Shown: piece after piece, positions 10,826-20,183 of the stretch | Numbering within the stretch: the stretch's first letter is position 1 | Layout of the letters: each line of letters begins with the position of its first letter | DNA from: an uncultured Chlamydiae bacterium | GTDB taxonomy: Bacteria; Chlamydiota; Chlamydiia; Chlamydiales; Parachlamydiaceae | Direction: 5' to 3' | Length of the DNA: 64,000 nucleotides | Assembly: GCA_963754655.1 (NCBI GenBank) | Contig: CAVWGN010000001.1 | Location: 2,176,001 to 2,240,000 of the forward strand | The notes under the pieces: model-generated | The model's database searches: none | What the model was told of the DNA's origin: nothing | The model's input: the letters and a program-made list of their open reading frames with translations, nothing else | Position numbers and translations under genes: made by a program

Positions 10826-11854
10826 TTATAAAGCTGTAAATTGACCAAGAAAGCGCAAATCATTTTCAGTAAATAAGCGGATATCTTGGATCCCCCTCAA
10901 CATCATCACAAGCCTTTCAAGTCCCATTCCCCAAGCAAAGCCCGTGTATTGTTCTGCATCAATCCCTCCATTGCGCAATACTTCAGGATGAATCATTCCA
11001 GCTCCTGCTATTTCAACCCAGCCGGTTTGTTTACATAAAGGACATCCTTTTCCTTGGCAAACCAAGCAAGTGATATCCACTTCAACTCCCGGCTCGACAA
11101 AAGGAAAATAGCTAGGACGATAGCGAGTGGCAATCTCTTGTGTAAAAAGCTTGCTCAAAAAGTCATCCAGTGTCGCAAACAAATCACCAAATGTGACATT
11201 TTTATCGATATACACAGCTTCTACCTGATGAAAGAAAACGTGTGAACGAGCAGTAATGGTTTCATTGCGATAGACTTTGCCAGGCGCAATGATGCGAATC
11301 GGCGGTTTATTCAGTTCCATGATGCGCGCTTGGATGTTAGAGGTATGCGTGCGCAACAAAACATGCGGAGAAAGGTAAAAGGTGTCTTGCATATCGCGGG
11401 CTGGATGATCGGGAGGAAAATTCAGCACTTCGAAATTATAGTAATCTGAATCAATATCAGGTCCATATTGAACAGAAAACCCCATTCCCGACAAAATGGT
11501 AATGATTCGATCCATGGCTTGCGTCAAAGGATGCTGACCTCCCCTGTAACGGCGTCGTCCAGGAAGAGTGATATCTAATATTTCATGGGCAAGTTGCTGT
11601 TCTTCTTCGCGAACTGTGAGCTCATGTTTGAGCTGGTCGCATTTCGCAGTCACAAACTCTTTGAGATCATTAATTTGTTTGCCGATTTGGGGACGCTGAT
11701 CAGGAGTCACATCACGCAGCATTTGCATGAGTTGCTGCACAGGCCCTTTTTTGCCAAGGTATTTCACTTGGACATTTTCCAAATCATCAGTTGTCTTCAC
11801 TTGAGCGACTTGCTGCAGAAATTGTTCGCGAAGTTCTTCGATACGTTGTTGCAC
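10826..11854 (-). CDS. pheS: Phenylalanyl-tRNA synthetase alpha subunit
   Basis: HPARDMQDTF, LRTHTS, FPFVEP, GFAWGMGLERL. Confidence 0.97.
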   Translation of the reverse strand: MQQRIEELREQFLQQVAQVKTTDDLENVQVKYLGKKGPVQQLMQMLRDVTPDQRPQIGKQINDLKEFVTAKCDQLKHELTVREEEQQLAHEILDITLPGRRRYRGGQHPLTQAMDRIITILSGMGFSVQYGPDIDSDYYNFEVLNFPPDHPARDMQDTFYLSPHVLLRTHTSNIQARIMELNKPPIRIIAPGKVYRNETITARSHVFFHQVEAVYIDKNVTFGDLFATLDDFLSKLFTQEIATRYRPSYFPFVEPGVEVDITCLVCQGKGCPLCKQTGWVEIAGAGMIHPEVLRNGGIDAEQYTGFAWGMGLERLVMMLRGIQDIRLFTENDLRFLGQFTAL

Positions 11855-11895
11855 GGCCTGCCTCTTAGAAATTCTTGACTTTAATGAGTGCGAAT

Positions 11896-11933
11896 AAAAA
11901 AAGAAAGAGCAAAATCAATGATTTTGCTCTTTT
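11896..11933 (-). terminator. Intrinsic terminator after rplT
   Basis: Minus strand: aaagagcaaaatca-t-tgattttgctcttt stem followed by a T run. Confidence 0.65.
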
Positions 11934-11950
11934 GAAGTGATGTTGATCCC

Positions 11951-12307
11951 TTAAACAAGGGCTTCTTTAGCACATCCCACAATCGCTGCAAATCCACCTG
12001 GATCGCTAATTGCCATGTCAGCTAAAACTTTTCGGTTGAGCTCACATCCCGCTTTTTTCAATCCATAAATAAATTTGCTATAGGAAATTCCATTAATTCT
12101 TGCAGCAGCATTTAAACGCATAATCCACAAACTACGAAAATCGCGTTTCTTTTGCTTACGATGGGCATAATTATAAGCCATCGCGCGCATCACCGCACCG
12201 CTTGTTAAACGCAAGTGATTTTTTCTATCTCCAACAAATCCCTTGGCTAATTTAAATAATCTTTTTTTGCGACGATGAGAAGCTACAGCATTGGTTACTC
12301 TAACCAT
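11951..12307 (-). CDS. rplT: 50S ribosomal protein L20
   Basis: [15 protein letters not shown]...[10 protein letters not shown]...LNRKVLAD. Confidence 0.98.
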
Positions 12308-12485
12308 AGCTATTCTCCACGTTAATAATTGACCGAAAAACCTAAATTTAGGTTTAAAACGGCTTTAACTTTATAAATATTTTTTCTATCTATTTGCTTA
12401 TCCGATGTCCAGGCTTGCATAGCAAGCATCGATTACCGTCTCTGTACAAACAGACAGCGGCTAAAGAAATTTCTCTAGCCTTATG

Positions 12486-12680
12486 TTATAAGCACATTAA
12501 GCGCTTATAAGTTTTCAAATGACCCTCATCTAAAAGGCCAGGTCGGCGTAACTGACGCTTACGCTTAGCTGTTTTATGGGTTAACAAGTGACGTTTACCT
12601 GGTTGGCTCATTTTAAGCTTTCCTGATCCAGTCACACGAAACCTAGCCGCAACGGCTTTACGAGTCTTCATTTTGGGCAT
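12486..12680 (-). CDS. rpmI: 50S ribosomal protein L35
   Basis: [21 protein letters not shown]; position in operon. Confidence 0.97.
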
Positions 12681-12712: not shown

Positions 12713-13258
12713 TTAAGGAGCTTCGTCTGTCGAACTCTGCTTAGCTCCTTCTTTCTTTTTCTTAGCTCCAGGAGATAAGACCACGAGCAGCATGCGACCC
12801 ATCATCTTAGCAGGAGATTCAGCAATAGAAATATCTTCTAATTCCTGACACATTGTTTGAACAATCTTTTCTCCAATCTCTGGATGCATCATCTCGCGCC
12901 CACGAAATGTACAAGTAATTTTAACTTTATTGCCACTCGTTAAAAATTCGCGAGCATGATTAGTTTTTGTTTCAAGGTCATGAGCATCAATATTAGGTTT
13001 AAGCTTAATTTCTTTTACCTTGATTTGATGCGAAGCCTTTTTATTTTCCTTTTCCCGTTTGCTTTGGTCATATCGGAACTTTCCAAAATTCATGACTTTG
13101 CAAACTGGCGGATTGGATCCTGGAACAATTTCAACTAGATCTAACCCTTGCTCCTCCGCCATAGCCAATGCCTCGTAAAGAGGCACAACACCCACCTGTT
13201 CTCCAGTGTGGCTAATCACGCGGACTTTTGGAGCTCGTATTTCTCGATTAACTTTCAA
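12713..13258 (-). CDS. infC: Translation initiation factor IF-3 (non-AUG start)
   Basis: [32 protein letters not shown] start overlapping the end of the upstream ThrRS-like gene. Confidence 0.96.
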
Positions 13259-15011
13259 GTGATTTATTTTCTCCTCTTATTGCCGTCCTTTCCTTCATAA
13301 GCATAGGACACAAAGATTCTTGATACACTTTATTTAAAAATACCTCTATATCAACAGATTGATTTTGATTAAATCCTTCTGCTCTTCTTACGCTGATCTT
13401 CTGTTTAATTCTCTCTTGCTCTCCTATCAGGACAAGATAGGGAACATTTTCTTTTTCAGCCTCGTGGACCCTTGTGCTTAATTTTGCTTGTCGTGTATCT
13501 AATTTGACTCGCAATCCTTTTTGCTGCAAACGTTGGCTCACTTGCCGCGCATAGACCCGATTCGATTCACCAATTGCCATCACTCGCACTTGCTCGGGAG
13601 CTAACCAAAAGGGAAACACTCCTTCATAGCGCTCGATTAATAAGGCAATAAAGCGGTCAAAGGAACCCCAAATATGCCGTGTCAAAATGACCAACTTGCT
13701 TTCTGCTTGCTGAGCCAATAAAGGATGGAGCTCTTTTAAATGCTGAATGACATTTAAATGAGAAACCGGCCATTCGCGCCCCAAAACATCATGCACTCGC
13801 AGCTCAAGGCGAGGACTCGCTGCCCCTTCTTCCTCTTGTAACTCACAAGAGTAAGGATAAGACCGAGGGTGGGTTTGAATCGCTTGTTTTAACCATCCAA
13901 TGGCTTCTTGTTCTTGTCGAGCTTTAGGACTTTTCTGTCGTGAAGCAATCAAGTACCACTGAGCCTCAAAACCAAACATTGTAATGATTTGTTCAATGAA
14001 ATGCAAGGAAGAAATTAATTCCGAAACAACTTGGTCTTTAAGACAGCAAATTGTCGCGTGATCGATCAAATAGGCGCACTGACAAAAGAGTCCCCACGAC
14101 TGAGACTCGGGATATTGGTGAAAAATAGGCGAATATTCAATCATCCTCCAAGGGAGTTCGTCTGGATCTGGGGAGAAATTTCTCAAAAACTCGAGGTGCT
14201 GCCTCAAGAGAGAAGAACGCAATCTATACTCTTGCCCTTCAAAGAGAAAGGGCTCCAACGCTTGGGGATCCTCTCCTAAAAACTCTAACTTTGCAGCTAG
14301 CGGAGAGGAAAATGAAGCCTCATCTTCAGGCAATTGCTGCTTTAACCAATTGATGAGAATCTGCTGCAATTGAATCCCCTTGGGATGCCACATCACCCCT
14401 AATTTACCCATGGGCTTAGAAAAACTAAAAAGATTAAGCCTAGGACCTAGCATGCGATGATCTCTCTTTTTCAAAAAAGAATCATATTTTTTTAAAAAAA
14501 TTTTTAAATCTTTTGAGGTTTTTTGACAGACTCCTAGAAGACGTGTGACCCTCACCTCTTCTTCTTGAATCTGTTTGATAAAATGACAGGACTCTAGAAG
14601 CTTAATCGAGCCGATTTCATGAGTGCTAGTCAGGGAAAGCGAAGGGCATAAGTCATAGAATTCCTCAATTTGCACGAGTTCTAAAATATTGGAACTTTGT
14701 TCACCTACCTGTTCAGCCAAGAGAAAATGCGCGCGATGTTCAAGCAACGCCTGAGCATTTTCCCGCATCATGCTAATGAAACGCACAGGATGGTTTTCTT
14801 TGATAAAGCGGTGCAAATGAACCTCGATCAATTCTAGCATGCTCTCTGTCAAGGGATTTTCAAAAATAAAATCATAGTAGAAGCCTAAAGAATTGATTCC
14901 CCCACCGACTAGGATGACATTGGGAAACAACTGCCATCCCACTAACGCTAAGACCTTAGCTGCCAAATAGCGTTGCTCAATGAAATTTGAAGAAGGTTGA
15001 GAATTGTCCAT
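13248..15011 (-). CDS. Threonyl-tRNA synthetase-like protein with degenerate catalytic and editing sites and a conserved anticodon-binding domain
   Basis: GFYYD, RDHR, WHPKG, GSFDRFIALLIE, FPFWLAPEQV and VPYLVLIG are recognisable. The MNCP motif, motif-2 Arg and HxxxH are absent. Confidence 0.85.
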   Translation of the reverse strand: MDNSQPSSNFIEQRYLAAKVLALVGWQLFPNVILVGGGINSLGFYYDFIFENPLTESMLELIEVHLHRFIKENHPVRFISMMRENAQALLEHRAHFLLAEQVGEQSSNILELVQIEEFYDLCPSLSLTSTHEIGSIKLLESCHFIKQIQEEEVRVTRLLGVCQKTSKDLKIFLKKYDSFLKKRDHRMLGPRLNLFSFSKPMGKLGVMWHPKGIQLQQILINWLKQQLPEDEASFSSPLAAKLEFLGEDPQALEPFLFEGQEYRLRSSLLRQHLEFLRNFSPDPDELPWRMIEYSPIFHQYPESQSWGLFCQCAYLIDHATICCLKDQVVSELISSLHFIEQIITMFGFEAQWYLIASRQKSPKARQEQEAIGWLKQAIQTHPRSYPYSCELQEEEGAASPRLELRVHDVLGREWPVSHLNVIQHLKELHPLLAQQAESKLVILTRHIWGSFDRFIALLIERYEGVFPFWLAPEQVRVMAIGESNRVYARQVSQRLQQKGLRVKLDTRQAKLSTRVHEAEKENVPYLVLIGEQERIKQKISVRRAEGFNQNQSVDIEVFLNKVYQESLCPMLMKERTAIRGENKSLES

Positions 15012-15036
15012 AAAGGGGATAAAGTTAGGTAAGAAA

Positions 15037-15110
15037 TGAGATATAGCTGACTCGAACAGCTGACCTCCACGATGTCAACGTGGCGCTCTAACCAACTGAG
15101 CTAATATCTC
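15037..15110 (-). tRNA. tRNA-Val(GAC), CCA not encoded
   Basis: GAGATATTAGCTCAGTTGGTTAGAGCGCCACGTTGACATCGTGGAGGTCAGCTGTTCGAGTCAGCTATATCTCA folds as a cloverleaf. Confidence 0.95.
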
Positions 15111-15125
15111 ATGGAAAGAATTAAG

Positions 15126-15155
15126 AAGATAACTGATTACAAGAATTTTATTCAA
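15126..15155 (-). promoter_or_regulatory. Possible sigma66 promoter for the tRNA-Val/ThrRS-like operon
   Basis: TTGAAT-18-TATCTT just upstream of the tRNA. Confidence 0.4.
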
Positions 15156-15180
15156 GACCAAAATTTTGCAAATTAAAATC

Positions 15181-15241
15181 TTACCACATGCGCCGTAAAG
15201 CCCCCGTCCTTCAGAACGGGGCTTTACGGCGCATGTGGTAA
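15181..15241. repeat. Perfect 24-bp-stem palindrome resembling IS200/IS605 end hairpins
   Basis: ttaccacatgcgccgtaaagcccc ... ggggctttacggcgcatgtggtaa. Confidence 0.7.
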
Positions 15242-15483
15242 ATCGAATGGCATTTTTAGAACTTGAAAAATGGAAATTTCAATCATGGAAGGCTTTGATC
15301 AAAGGCTCGACTTTTTGAATCGTTTGCTTATGGTGAGTTTGTTAAATTTTTATTTTATTTCGAATTGCTGTTTTTTACCCGTCCACCTTGTTTTTAAAGG
15401 TGTCATTTTTATATAATTTTGAAGACAATCAACTCATGTTCCTTCTCCAACTCCTACTTGGAAGCAAAAATCCACAGAAAACT

Positions 15484-16035
15484 ATGCATAGCGAACTGGA
15501 TGTTTTAAAAGACATATGTTCCCAATTAGACAGTAATGAAATCTCCTATATGTTGACAGGATCATTTGCTGCTAATTTTTATGCTCTTCCACGTATGACA
15601 AGAGACATTGATATTGTCATTGAAATATACCCACAGAATGTTGAAAAAGTTTATAGAATTTTTCAGAAAGACTTTTATATAGATAAAACATCAATCAATG
15701 AAGCCATCCAACATCGGAATATGTTTAATATTATCCATAATGACCTTTCCCTTAAAATTGATTTTATTATTCGTAAAGATGACGAATATCGTCAAATCGA
15801 ATTTCAAAGAAAAAAAAAGATCTATCTTGATAACATCCCTATTTGGATTGTAACTCTGGAAGATCTTATTATTTCCAAGTTATATTGGGCAAAAGACAGC
15901 CACTCTGAAATACAAATGAAAGATGTTAGAAATCTTCTGCTATCTTCACCGCAAATTGATTTCTCTTACATGAAAGAATGGATAGACAAATTAAATCTAT
16001 TTACCCTGTATGAGAAGGTCAAAATCAATGAATGA
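15484..16035 (+). CDS. Pol-beta-like nucleotidyltransferase (putative toxin/AbiEii-like)
   Basis: YMLTGSFA...PRMTRDIDIVI (GS plus DxD), EDLIISKL; start moved to ATG 15484. Confidence 0.75.
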   Translation: MHSELDVLKDICSQLDSNEISYMLTGSFAANFYALPRMTRDIDIVIEIYPQNVEKVYRIFQKDFYIDKTSINEAIQHRNMFNIIHNDLSLKIDFIIRKDDEYRQIEFQRKKKIYLDNIPIWIVTLEDLIISKLYWAKDSHSEIQMKDVRNLLLSSPQIDFSYMKEWIDKLNLFTLYEKVKINE

Positions 16036-16324
16036 TACTTCTCCTATGATGGATAAAAAAATGCGTGAGATGATCAATGCTAAAGACCCTATAGAACGTC
16101 TAAAAATGGGGTGTTCAATGTATCATACATCACGATATTTAATCGAACGTGCCATATTAGAAAAAAATCCCTCTATTTCCAAAATCGACCTTAAAAAGGA
16201 AATTTTCCTCAAATTTTATCGTGATGATTTTTCACCTGAGGAATGTGAACGAATTATTAAACACCTTCAAACCCATGGAAAAGATCATCTTGAACCCTTG
16301 ACATCGAATCATACCATCAATTGA
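16028..16324 (+). CDS. Small helical partner of the nucleotidyltransferase (putative antitoxin)
   Basis: MNDTSP...ERLKMG pattern; start overlaps the NTase stop. Confidence 0.6.
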   Translation: MNDTSPMMDKKMREMINAKDPIERLKMGCSMYHTSRYLIERAILEKNPSISKIDLKKEIFLKFYRDDFSPEECERIIKHLQTHGKDHLEPLTSNHTIN

Positions 16325-16338
16325 TTAAGGAAGAAATC

Positions 16339-16836
16339 ATGCAAAGTTACACAGTGATTAAAAAGCCCTCTCAAATAGTTATGGGTATTGAATGTCGAAC
16401 CTCTAACGATCCTCAGGCAGGCCCTTATGATATTCCACGCCATTGGAAAAAGTTTTATAGTGAAGACATTATCGATCAAATTCCGAATAAAATTTCCAAT
16501 GAAATCATTGCTCTTTATTGCGATTATGAAGGCGATTATACCCAGCCCTATTCATTAGTTATTGGCTGTCCTGTGACTTCTCTTGATCTTATCCCTATAG
16601 GAATGGTCGCTAAAATTATTCCAGCTGGATCCTATGCAGTTTTTCGTGCAATAGGAGATTATCCTCAAAGTTTAGTTGAGACTTGGGGACAGATTTGGCA
16701 GCATGTAGACTTAGAACGCACCTATACTGGCGATTACGAGTTATATGTGAATCCATTCACCTCAGAATCAACTCAGGAAGTAGAAGTCTTTATCGCTATC
16801 CAGCGCACATCACTTTCGCAGAAATTGAGCAAATGA
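16339..16836 (+). CDS. GyrI-like / AraC effector-binding domain protein
   Basis: GIECRTSN, YCDYEGDYTQPY, IPAGSYAVF, WGQIW, RTYTGDYELY. Confidence 0.85.
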   Translation: MQSYTVIKKPSQIVMGIECRTSNDPQAGPYDIPRHWKKFYSEDIIDQIPNKISNEIIALYCDYEGDYTQPYSLVIGCPVTSLDLIPIGMVAKIIPAGSYAVFRAIGDYPQSLVETWGQIWQHVDLERTYTGDYELYVNPFTSESTQEVEVFIAIQRTSLSQKLSK

Positions 16837-16902: not shown

Positions 16903-17658
16903 TCACTCATGATCATGGCCGTGTTTTGCATTTGCTTGTTGGACCGTGACAGCAATGTGAGCAATATAATAAAGAGAGGTTCCTTCAAAGCCAGAGTCTG
17001 TGCCTACAAAAAGCCACAAACGTCCTTTACTATCTGTTTTCATTCTTAAAGGGTTGCCCTCATTTGTGAACTCTTTAGGCTCAAATTGAGGATTTGAGGG
17101 ATTGACCAAAGAATTAGCTAAGTTGCCTACGACAATGGCATTGTTTCCTCCCTGCGATTGTTCACCCTTATCTACATTCAAGCCATAGGTGCCATTGATA
17201 TCGACCTTATGCGGCTCTATTTTTGATGCTCCAACTTTAAAGTAAACACTTTCACCTGGAGAGCCACCAATACCTATTAATCCGGGAGGAATATCGTTCT
17301 CGATTAGAACATCAAAGGTTAAATCATAGAAAGTATGGGGTTTTAATCCTTTAACCTGACGTTTGATAAACATAAATAAATCATCGCTGTGATTATTTCC
17401 TGTTAAAAATATTCCCTGAGTTAGAATGCGTCCATTAAGCGGTAAGGCAGCCGGAAGAGTAGTCCATCCCCAGGCTAATTCAAAAAAAGCTTCTTGTCCG
17501 ACAGGATAATCAGCAAAATCTCCTTGCCAGCCTTGATTATTCACTGAAAAGTCAAACTTAAAATGCGTTGACTTAGCTTCCACCTGAAAAGATGAGAAAA
17601 TCAAGCAAACGGTAAATAGAAGAAAAAGAGAAAATTTATAAAATACATTCATGATCAT
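16903..17658 (-). CDS. Exported hypothetical beta-rich protein
   Basis: Signal peptide; GWQGDFADYP, GNNHSDDLFMF, WLFVGTDSGFEG. Confidence 0.7.
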   Translation of the reverse strand: MIMNVFYKFSLFLLFTVCLIFSSFQVEAKSTHFKFDFSVNNQGWQGDFADYPVGQEAFFELAWGWTTLPAALPLNGRILTQGIFLTGNNHSDDLFMFIKRQVKGLKPHTFYDLTFDVLIENDIPPGLIGIGGSPGESVYFKVGASKIEPHKVDINGTYGLNVDKGEQSQGGNNAIVVGNLANSLVNPSNPQFEPKEFTNEGNPLRMKTDSKGRLWLFVGTDSGFEGTSLYYIAHIAVTVQQANAKHGHDHE

Positions 17659-17857: not shown

Positions 17858-19699
17858 TTATCCTTCTTCTTTTCTCCCTTGAAAGAAGGCTTGTAAAGCT
17901 GCAATATTAACCTCTGAAATGCCCTTTACTTGTCTCAATTCCTCGGCACTTGCTATTTCAACTTTCTTTAGACTTCCAAGATGAGTTAAAAGTGCTTTGC
18001 GCTTGACAGGACCAATCCCTGGAATATCATCAAGAGTACTACGTAAAGTTTGCTTAGAACGTCGCTTGCGATGAAAGGCAATTGCTACACGATGAGCTTC
18101 ATCACGAATCTTTTGCAACAAAAAGAGAACCGGAGAATTTCTTTTCAAAATAATAGGGTCTTTGCGATCTGGCAAAAAGACCTGCTCTTCTGTCATTCCT
18201 TTATCATGTCTTCCCTGTTCTTTAGCTAAGCCGATAAGATCGACTCCGGTAACATTGAGTTCTTCGAAAACCTTTAAAGCAACGTTTAATTGACCTTTTC
18301 CGCCATCAACAATGACTAGATCGGGTAAGTCATTTTCTTGCTTCGCACGCTTATAGCGACGCATCAACGCCTCGTGCATAGCCACATAGTCATCGGGTTT
18401 GGTCCCCATTTTCAACCGATAAGTGCGATAACGTTTGCTGTCTTTGATTCCATCGGTAAAGACGACCAAGGAAGAAACGGGCTCCGATCCGGCAATATGA
18501 GAGTTATCAATACATTCAATTCGAGAAGGATAGCGAGTGAGTTCCAATTGCTCTTGCATTTCCAATAAAGTTTTTTCACGCAAAGTCTCTTCATTTTTTT
18601 GCGACTTAAAAAGAGCTTCAGCATTCGCTTGCGCCATATCCAATAAAGCTTTTTTTTCTCCTCGCTGCGGCACATGCAGAGTCACTTTACGGTTTTGCCG
18701 TCCAGATAAAATTTCTTCAATACTTTCACGATCGCTTGAAATTGTGGGCAAAAGAAGGGCAGGAGGAATTTCTATTGGCCCTTCATAATATTGCAAGATA
18801 AAAGAACCGAGCAATTCAGCATCCTCTTCTACACTGTTGTGAAAATCAAATTGACGTGATCCAATCAATCTCCCCCCTCGAAACAGAAGTTGAACTAAAA
18901 GAACTTCTTCTCCATGGCGATAAATGCCAATTGCATCAACATCAGGGCCTAAAGGACGGTCAACATGTTGGCTTTCAATTGTTTTTTCAATATGGCGAAT
19001 AGCCTTAAAAATTTGCGCAGCCCTTTCAAACTCTAAATTCTCAGACAAACGATTCATTTCTTCATAGAGATCTTTTAAAACTTCCTTGTCTTGACCACGT
19101 AAAAACTTAATCGTTCTTTCTAAATGATGATGATATTCTTCTTGGGTACATTTTTGTGCACAAGGGCCAGCACAGCGCTTCATTTGATAGAGAAGGCAGG
19201 GACGGCGGATACGTCGGGCCAGTTCTTGATTAGAACACTGCCTCAAGGGAAAAAGACGATTCAACAATTCTAATGTTTGACGTGCAGCTTGAGCACTCGT
19301 ATAAGGACCAAAATAGAGCCCATCAGGTTCAGGCGAACCACGATAGCGCACGAGTTTAACAGTAGGCCAAGATTCCTGAAGGTCAATTTTTAAAGCAATA
19401 TAGCTTTTATCATCTTTAAGTAATGCGTTATAGCGCGGCTTATATTGCTTGATCAAGTTATTTTCAAGTAGCAAAGCCTCCTTTTCAGAGGTCACAACAA
19501 TCGTATCAATATGATCAATTTTGGCAACAAGGTAAGGAACCATGAGGCGACCATCGCGTCCTGCTACAAAATATTGCTTGACACGTTGCCTCAAATTTTT
19601 AGCCTTTCCTACATATAAAACTTCCCCTTGCTGATCTTTCATAAGATAAACGCCAGGCTGCATAGGAAAAAAATTGATCTTTTTGGGGTCAAAAGACAT
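17858..19699 (-). CDS. uvrC: Excinuclease ABC subunit C
   Basis: PGVYLMKD, YVGKAKNLR, RIECIDNS, DGGKGQL, C-terminal HhH; start taken at MSFDP. Confidence 0.97.
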   Translation of the reverse strand: MSFDPKKINFFPMQPGVYLMKDQQGEVLYVGKAKNLRQRVKQYFVAGRDGRLMVPYLVAKIDHIDTIVVTSEKEALLLENNLIKQYKPRYNALLKDDKSYIALKIDLQESWPTVKLVRYRGSPEPDGLYFGPYTSAQAARQTLELLNRLFPLRQCSNQELARRIRRPCLLYQMKRCAGPCAQKCTQEEYHHHLERTIKFLRGQDKEVLKDLYEEMNRLSENLEFERAAQIFKAIRHIEKTIESQHVDRPLGPDVDAIGIYRHGEEVLLVQLLFRGGRLIGSRQFDFHNSVEEDAELLGSFILQYYEGPIEIPPALLLPTISSDRESIEEILSGRQNRKVTLHVPQRGEKKALLDMAQANAEALFKSQKNEETLREKTLLEMQEQLELTRYPSRIECIDNSHIAGSEPVSSLVVFTDGIKDSKRYRTYRLKMGTKPDDYVAMHEALMRRYKRAKQENDLPDLVIVDGGKGQLNVALKVFEELNVTGVDLIGLAKEQGRHDKGMTEEQVFLPDRKDPIILKRNSPVLFLLQKIRDEAHRVAIAFHRKRRSKQTLRSTLDDIPGIGPVKRKALLTHLGSLKKVEIASAEELRQVKGISEVNIAALQAFFQGRKEEG

Positions 19700-19712
19700 A
19701 AATCCATCAATA

Positions 19713-20183
19713 TTAGTAAGATCGTTCAAACTTCATTTGATTTTTGATGGGAGATCTTTTCAATTCTTCTTTTTCTTCGACAATTTTAAGATAGAATTGT
19801 CGAAAGTTATCTTTAAGTCTTCTTCGACAATCCTGTAGATATTCATAAAGTCTTTCCCATTCCCTATCCTTGAGAATTTTCTTTAATGCAATTTGGAAGG
19901 CTTTTTGACTGGTAAAAATCAGCTTTTCATTGCTAATTTCTCTCCAAAGAGTCATCCCCTCTTCTTTTAAATTCTGGACCGTTCGAACAATAAGAGTCTT
20001 ATCGCCTTTAAAATAAGGATCTGTCACCTCTTGAGTAGCCAATCGCCCACGTTGTAAGCGAGTCAAAGAGCGATCGAAAGGGGCCACAACGTTTTTGTCT
20101 TCTCGTTCAATTTTATTGGACGTGAGGACATAGGTATGCGGAAAGTCTGGTCTTCCTGATAAGGAAATAGAATTTATATTCAT
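19713..20183 (-). CDS. Hypothetical protein
   Basis: 156-aa ORF with AAGGA RBS. Confidence 0.6.
   Translation of the reverse strand: MNINSISLSGRPDFPHTYVLTSNKIEREDKNVVAPFDRSLTRLQRGRLATQEVTDPYFKGDKTLIVRTVQNLKEEGMTLWREISNEKLIFTSQKAFQIALKKILKDREWERLYEYLQDCRRRLKDNFRQFYLKIVEEKEELKRSPIKNQMKFERSY

Follow-up and report, generated by a model that had tools for sequence, protein, structure and literature searches.

A probably non-catalytic threonyl-tRNA synthetase paralogue maintained by selection at the ancestral thrS position of chlamydial genomes

Here we describe a derivative of threonyl-tRNA synthetase (ThrRS) encoded in the genome of an uncultured Chlamydiae bacterium of the Parachlamydiaceae, within a stretch of 64,000 nt (assembly GCA_963754655.1, contig CAVWGN010000001.1, positions 2,176,001 to 2,240,000) that is referred to as a whole as “the window”. 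The gene is an intact open reading frame (ORF) of 587 amino acids (P0001; 13248..15011, minus strand) placed between a tRNA-Val(GAC) gene (15036..15111, minus strand) and infC, and is termed the “slot copy”. An uninterrupted frame overlapping the infC start had been noted in a preliminary description of this DNA, and the ORF listing confirmed it, with an overlap of 11 nt; the distance from the tRNA to the ATG, given there as 26 bp, is 24 nt. The slot is the ancestral position of thrS, as had been proposed: the gene order here matches thrS-infC-rpmI-rplT-pheS of E. coli, and the arrangement tRNA-Val(gac)-thrS-infC is also seen in unrelated bacteria.

The slot copy very probably encodes a protein that is dead as an enzyme but kept by selection. 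Our best overall explanation, a non-catalytic, tRNA-binding pseudo-synthetase descended from the thrS of this slot, is one we hold with about as much doubt as confidence, and the retained job by itself, the binding of RNA or tRNA, is proposed tentatively and with slightly more doubt than confidence. According to this explanation, a chlamydial ancestor would have lost the aminoacylation and editing chemistry of the slot thrS early, and a separate canonical thrS would supply the ThrRS activity. Such a history would make the gene a case where an essential enzyme gene was functionally replaced by a second copy and then long kept in its old slot as a selected non-enzyme.

Lost residues and retained fold of the slot protein

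The likeness of the slot protein to ThrRS is far beyond chance, since the NCBIfam model TIGR00418 matched it from end to end with an E-value of 9.8e-74 and the HMMER alignment to E. coli ThrRS (1qf6) gave 2e-47; the TIGR00418 score of 249.2 bits is below the cut-off of 383.65 for that family. Pfam recognised the anticodon-binding domain (ABD; HGTP_anticodon, 3.4e-15), a borderline tRNA-synt_2b (31.8 bits vs 29.3) and a sub-threshold tRNA_SAD (16 bits vs 24), and no likeness to any non-synthetase family was found with Pfam and NCBIfam, where all matches were of ThrRS or AlaRS type. The AF2 model of the slot protein reached a pLDDT of 92.1 and a pTM of 0.91, its best Foldseek match was 1qf6_A (E-value 2.7e-44) with all listed matches being ThrRS, and the isolated core plus ABD gave TMt values of 0.82-0.85. 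Taken together, AF2, Foldseek and Pfam find in the slot protein the N2 domain, the class II core and the HGTP-type ABD of the ThrRS fold. On the minus strand these correspond to an N2-like, formerly editing domain at residues ~6-182 (14466..14996), a degenerate class II catalytic core at residues 183-470 (13602..14465) and the ABD at residues 471-566 (13314..13601). The TGS domain is absent, because the alignment to 1qf6 begins only at about E. coli residue 73 and the ORF itself starts 24 nt after the tRNA. The preliminary description had reported both this absence and a well-conserved ABD, and both are seen in the residue alignment, where the ABD strings of the slot protein and 1qf6 agree.

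The residues that carry the chemistry have been replaced. Relative to 1qf6, the editing strings HSCAH and DMCRGPH read YLAAK and DLCPSLS, the core strings KPMNCPGH and IHRA read RSSLLRQH and LTRH, and GLMRVRGFTQDDAH reads GLFCQCAYLIDHAT; all of these substituted strings had been given in the preliminary description and were reproduced by the HMMER alignment. The same description had motif 2 HRNE reading HQYP, of which the loss stands and the register does not, HRNE being aligned with FHQY. Mapping of C334, H385, H511, R363, H73 and H77 (E. coli numbering) found all six replaced. The three Zn ligands C334, H385 and H511 correspond to L269, T320 and T444; in motif 2, R363 became H298 and E365 became Y300, with both R375 and R377 of the loop turned into Cys; Q381, D383, Y462 and Q484 became Ile, His, Ala and Asn; and in the editing site H73, H77, K156 and H186 became Tyr, Lys, Leu and Ser. 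What is kept consists of Y104, D180, C182, the motif-1 Pro (P237) and the motif-3 Arg R520 (= R453). Among the 146 family members, the zinc Cys at the C334 position occurs in none and at most 4 of 11 catalytic residues are retained in any one, while the motif-1 Pro and the motif-3 Arg are each found in 132/146, the Y104 equivalent in 131/146 and the C182 equivalent in 103/146. With the Zn ligands absent in 146/146 members and the residues contacting ATP and Thr lost, aminoacylation by this protein is not credible.

A second, canonical thrS had been predicted to exist elsewhere in the genome, and it was found at G000:C1:204841-206511. It encodes 643 amino acids, scores 672.9 bits against TIGR00418 (cut-off 383.65), and contains TGS, tRNA_SAD (N2), core and ABD with every catalytic residue present; among aligned full-length canonical chlamydial ThrRS, 12/12 copies keep 20/20 key residues. 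The gene overlaps a ParA-type ATPase gene, a pairing found in most relatives, and a leucine-rich-repeat protein (LRR_6 / LRR_4) adjoins it upstream (L001 3589-4659, G000:C1). Two canonical copies among the relatives are unusual. The one on a 4.5-kb contig of genome G024 (C168, L153) is 38% identical to the canonical copy here, with all others at 57-88%, and may represent contamination or a third ThrRS type. In genome G035 (L043, L044), both genes appear split, the canonical thrS into two overlapping ORFs (344 and 389 aa) and the slot copy into ORFs of 279 and 362 aa; either the genes are truly decaying or the assembly or reading frame is in error.

Conservation, selection and origin of the slot family

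We inspected the region upstream of infC in 55 chlamydial genomes and found a ThrRS-derived ORF of 337-621 aa between tRNA-Val(GAC) and infC in 48 of them, which bears out the expectation that orthologues exist across relatives. The tRNA lies directly next to the slot gene except in G008 and G039, where ~1-1.6 kb separates the two; in G039 (L050 1535-2449) an additional 305-aa ORF is located between tRNA-Val and a 337-aa ThrRS remnant. A single open frame is preserved in 46/48 slot copies, at identities down to ~25-30%, the exceptions being G035 with two overlapping ORFs and G091, where the ABD is split off. In a phylum-wide sample, a second ThrRS-like match was detected in at least 70 of 120 genomes, a lower bound in that weak remnants are detected only by a hidden Markov model (HMM). 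Homologues of the slot protein are abundant, share 78-31% identity with it and are mostly 520-630 aa long, and those with a name belong to Parachlamydiaceae, Protochlamydia or Chlamydiota, an orthologue of Protochlamydia amoebophila among them; the closest ESM-Atlas cluster is labelled “hypothetical protein”, with Chlamydiota as the commonest phylum.

Purifying selection was shown to act on the slot gene in all three domains. In seven genomes of the family to which this one belongs, IQ-TREE fits under GY+F3X4 gave a nonsynonymous to synonymous ratio (omega, dN/dS) of 0.167 for the slot gene (log-likelihood, lnL, -12301.0 vs -12733.3 at omega = 1), although dS is saturated in this set (tree length 13.3 substitutions per codon), which tells against leaning on it and leaves the close-species set below as the cleaner test. 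The per-domain values from these genomes, 0.117 for N2, 0.211 for the core and 0.104 for the ABD, agree with the purifying selection that had been anticipated for the orthologues. The canonical thrS of the identical seven genomes has an omega of 0.037 as a whole and 0.024-0.063 per domain, and by this measure the slot gene evolves ~4.5x faster. The same holds for identity to genome G002 (64% for the slot copy and 88% for the canonical copy) and for the end branches (0.41 vs 0.078). A second family, f8, gave an omega of 0.146 over eight genomes (lnL -8439.1 vs -8769.1 at omega = 1). For four close f8 species with unsaturated dS (0.35-0.58), the maximum likelihood (ML) omega of the slot gene was 0.232 (lnL -3070.4 vs -3149.0 at omega = 1), and pairwise dN/dS by NG86 fell at 0.15-0.18 in 6/6 pairs. 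Column entropy over the slot family is 2.19 for the ABD, 2.31 for N2 and 2.53 for the core, the core thus being the least constrained part.

The ML tree gathers the slot copies into a single group (100*) on a branch 1.42 long, apart from the canonical chlamydial copies, which also form one group (100*) and are nested among other bacterial ThrRS. A topology uniting both chlamydial groups was not rejected (p-AU 0.163), and the two copies may stem from a duplication or from a replacement by transfer, with either of them possibly the vertical one. Scored with the slot HMM, other bacterial ThrRS reach a median of 452 vs 393 for the chlamydial canonical copies, and 60/72 beat the best canonical one, a comparison biased by the selection of the metagenome loci for likeness to the query. 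These loci came from a metagenome scan with alignment A1, which kept 80 loci of ordinary ThrRS at 25-32% identity that served as outgroups and context only. Among the 81 ThrRS-matching ORFs in them, tRNA-Val(gac) lies directly upstream of 16 and infC downstream of 45. Ten ORFs of 580-602 aa encode ThrRS without TGS and keep 18/18 catalytic and editing positions in every case, two of them (L074, L108) in the tRNA-Val(GAC)-thrS-infC context. A missing TGS, which had been counted among the signs of decay, therefore loses that meaning, as TGS-less ThrRS with the full catalytic set occur in other bacteria. By its position, the slot gene descends from an ordinary bacterial thrS that possibly already lacked TGS.

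Candidate roles and known counterparts

The pseudo-synthetase explanation supposes a non-enzymatic protein that would use both of its former tRNA-contacting ends, namely the N2-like domain, remodelled but never lost, and the ABD, retained in this genus. The dead catalytic core would act as a link holding these two together, and the whole would bind, but not charge, tRNA-Thr or an RNA like it. A motif specific to the family lies in the N2-like domain; it reads MMRENA in the slot protein (residues 81-86; 14754..14771, minus strand), and its positions M81, M82, R83, N85 and A86 have weighted frequencies of 0.90-0.97 in the slot family. This MMRxNA motif was seen in at least 30 diverse orthologues, is nearly invariant in alignment A1, is unconserved in canonical ThrRS and was absent from the 80 metagenome loci; H92, K174 and W208 are further family-conserved positions. 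As for the ABD, the equivalents of G597, E600 and R609 are present in 132/135, 133/135 and 114/134 of the non-gap members, respectively, and the R583 equivalent is His in the slot protein and in 111 family members. Passages of two papers name R583, E600 and R609 among the anticodon or operator contacts of E. coli ThrRS (PMC6430810, PMC4756836). RNA binding by the slot protein remains plausible. A more specific version, rather unlikely in all its parts, takes the N2-like domain with MMRxNA as the selected core, which in full-length members would clamp tRNA-Thr or a look-alike together with the ABD and, leaving it uncharged, act as a sensor, buffer or protector; a transcript shared with tRNA-Val, IF3, L35 and L20 would then couple tRNA status to how the translation machinery is expressed.

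Several observations weigh against the pseudo-synthetase explanation. The G597 and E600 positions are also present in a HisRS-like ABD of the same genome, and their retention may reflect the fold rather than Thr specificity. In the close f8 pair G119-G116, the dN/dS of the ABD is 0.44. Many orthologues have no ABD or a broken one (e.g., the 492-509-aa forms), and in several shortened forms its DNA has been deleted, with 94-145 bp remaining before infC. Its loss is under way within one f8 genus (L158-L161), where the full-length form of 543 aa is present in G119 and G116, G091 carries an ORF of 453 aa and a separate ABD fragment of 72 aa, and the ORF of G110 is down to 444 aa, its ABD DNA having disappeared. 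Since the ABD has been lost or broken repeatedly in this way, anticodon binding by this domain cannot be the family-wide function. The preliminary description had taken the ABD as the reason for retention of the gene; it was right that the domain is constrained in this clade, but elsewhere the ABD was deleted or broken and the remainder is still selected. The slot gene as a whole is cleanly deleted in G026 and G028, where tRNA-Val adjoins infC, and in the small-genome family f20 neither slot gene nor tRNA was found upstream of infC in 5/5 genomes examined, with a second ThrRS-like match in 0/26 of its genomes in the phylum-wide sample; the deletion and the absence together indicate that the gene is dispensable in reduced genomes. 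Finally, anticodon-arm mimics of tRNA-Thr were searched for with a simple pattern (YUNGURN loop, stem of at least 4 bp) that distant mimics could escape. Upstream of the canonical thrS it gave 0 hairpins in 29 loci (0.66 in shuffles), and in 15 slot operons two scattered hits, none recurrent. With a leader of only 24 nt in addition, the E. coli-type operator suggested earlier is not borne out, and no arm-mimic hairpins of the kind used in E. coli autoregulation were found in the leader.

Among the alternatives to a tRNA-binding pseudo-synthetase, the strongest, though still improbable, is that the N2-like domain has been neofunctionalised, with a pocket or surface rebuilt around MMRxNA, H92 and the Y104 and C182 equivalents to serve as a hydrolase, a ligand sensor or an acceptor-end binder, and with core and ABD optional. 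Its appeal lies in the shortened orthologues: in the forms of 337-450 aa, no region other than the N2-like part (query ~6-230) is matched throughout, and others lack or diverge around query residues 230-300. MMRxNA is near-invariant across families, the Y104 and C182 equivalents are widely kept, and the omega of N2 is low, also in a close pair (dN/dS 0.147). On the other hand, the editing residues H73, H77, K156 and H186 are gone, and Pfam and NCBIfam offer no other family to which the domain could be likened.

A second alternative, less probable again, makes the dead copy a pseudo-subunit that would pair with the canonical ThrRS at the class II dimer interface and modulate it, comparable to SLIMP with mitochondrial SerRS. 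The predicted complex of canonical core plus ABD with slot core plus ABD had an ipSAE of 0.83, as compared with 0.00 for the best control, a mark reached by 116/157 solved complexes and 2/215 mismatched pairs; the runs agreed in at least 91% of contacts with a partner pLDDT of at least 82. The modelled interface is of class II type and includes the widely kept motif-1 P237 and the family-conserved W208. However, the score may reflect solved ThrRS homodimers that the model has learned; it expresses likeness only, and a homodimer fits it equally well. Conservation at the interface does not exceed that of the remaining core (entropy 2.77 vs 2.49, Mann-Whitney p 0.95), the slot protein is 11% identical to the canonical ThrRS of its genome at these positions vs 25% across the rest of the core, and shortened orthologues lack or diverge in the motif-1 region, residues ~230-300. 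An inhibitor decoy and a secreted effector are further conceivable roles.

It is very unlikely that the protein is irrelevant and the frame stays open merely to bring ribosomes or promoter signals to infC. The arrangement itself would suit such a role, for the infC TTG (13258) lies 8 nt before the stop codon of the slot ORF, the 3′-terminal part of the ORF contains a Shine-Dalgarno-like string for infC, AAGAGGAG, the order of the genes does not vary, and a promoter-like match lies within the ORF at 13354-13327, such matches not being enriched over shuffles. A role in cis alone, however, predicts a dN/dS of ~1, and the observed values are 0.15-0.23; conserved motifs and a confident fold point to selection on the protein, the gap between ORF and infC extends up to ~170 nt in orthologues, and in G026 and G028 infC stands next to tRNA-Val without the gene. 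Least probable of all are a slowly decaying pseudogene and a still-active atypical ThrRS: the shrinkage of orthologues from 621 to 337 aa, the broken copy of G035, the detached ABD of G091 and the retained motif-3 Arg might speak for them, but the frames stay open at low identity and neutrality was rejected, and an active enzyme is contradicted by the missing Zn ligands and the lost ATP and Thr contacts. A broken frame and a dN/dS near 1, the signs of a pseudogene, are not what is seen here. With omega well under 1 and neutrality rejected in two families, both simple decay and a frame serving only in cis are excluded.

A non-catalytic pseudo-synthetase in the thrS slot can be compared with several known systems. 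With E. coli ThrS (1qf6) and S. aureus ThrRS (1nyq) the slot protein shares the fold, the domain order N2-core-ABD and the genomic position, and keeps the motif-1 Pro and motif-3 Arg; unlike them, it has no TGS, no Zn ligands, no R363/E365 and no H73/H77/K156/H186, and falls below the TIGR00418 cut-off. The TGS-less bacterial ThrRS (~580-600 aa) have the same three-domain layout, in L074 and L108 also the same tRNA-Val(gac)/infC flanks, and are among the best scorers with the slot HMM, but their catalytic and editing positions are intact, and they are presumably active enzymes and the sole thrS of their genomes. Crenarchaeal ThrRS-ed is a non-aminoacylating ThrRS paralogue whose editing domain has a different fold and which is active in trans-editing. 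It is likewise derived from ThrRS, keeps the ABD and coexists with a catalytic ThrRS, whereas the slot copy has lost the bacterial-type editing residues; the corresponding model NF011500 (Ser-tRNA(Thr) hydrolase / ThrRS-ed) gave 45.7 bits against a cut-off of 362, in the ABD region only.

Non-enzymatic relatives of other class II synthetases are also instructive. HisZ, a regulator of HisG, has no ABD and keeps histidine binding, and SLIMP pairs with mitochondrial SerRS. Both are, like the slot copy, class II paralogues without aminoacylation that are kept by selection, but the slot copy has no evident partner or pathway. HisZ (HisRS-like) and SLIMP (SerRS-like) are listed among aminoacyl-tRNA synthetase-like proteins in a passage of PMC9437257, and the same source describes Anabaena T1/T2 and eukaryotic ThrRS-L as ThrRS duplicates that still aminoacylate. 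These genomes contain two ThrRS-type genes, as here, with the difference that the slot copy is without the catalytic residues. A full-text literature search, with subscription journals outside its scope, brought up no account of a dead ThrRS paralogue from chlamydiae or other bacteria. Dead synthetase paralogues are a known kind, and a ThrRS-derived member adds to a short list. The naturally truncated series from 621 to 337 aa points to a minimal functional module, and annotation of such genes as “threonyl-tRNA synthetase”, “Threonine--tRNA ligase” or by an uninformative domain name can mislead metabolic and marker-gene analyses of chlamydiae.

The locus and its neighbours

All genes of the slot cluster lie on the minus strand. 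The tRNA-Val(GAC) was called as a tRNA and matched by Rfam, and its adjacency to the slot gene is conserved; above threshold, the Rfam scan of the slot locus and of the canonical thrS locus returned nothing except tRNA. The slot-ORF leader is pyrimidine-rich and without an obvious Shine-Dalgarno sequence. Downstream, infC (12713..13258) is listed with a TTG start and encodes initiation factor 3 (IF3) with the Pfam domains IF3_N and IF3_C, and rpmI (12486-12680), rplT (11951-12307) and pheS (10826-11854), together spanning 10826..12680, complete the conserved cluster. The slot gene probably shares a transcript with tRNA-Val, and its translation is probably coupled to that of infC. A promoter-like site, TTTGCA-16-TAAAAT, is found 5′ of tRNA-Val at 15145..15172 (minus strand) as a consensus match only, matches of this sort being no more frequent than in shuffles, and judged from this arrangement it is possible that tRNA-Val, the slot ORF and infC form one transcription unit starting there. 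Just upstream of the site lies a perfect inverted repeat of 24 nt around a 13-nt loop (15181-15241), which probably acts as a strong terminator or insulator against the divergent genes beyond.

The divergent genes at 15388-16836 (plus strand) are small, three in number and closely spaced. One ORF has a weak, below cut-off match to the nucleotidyltransferase-like DUF6036 (E-value 7.9e-4); it is overlapped by the second, of 104 aa, for which no family was matched, and the third encodes a Cass2/GyrI-like effector-binding protein (6e-23). The first two could be a toxin-antitoxin-like pair. Further along, an ORF of 251 aa, hydrophobic at its N-terminus and unmatched in Pfam, occupies 16903-17658 (minus strand), followed at 17858-19729 (minus strand) by uvrC with GIY-YIG, UVR, UvrC RNase H-like and HhH domains.

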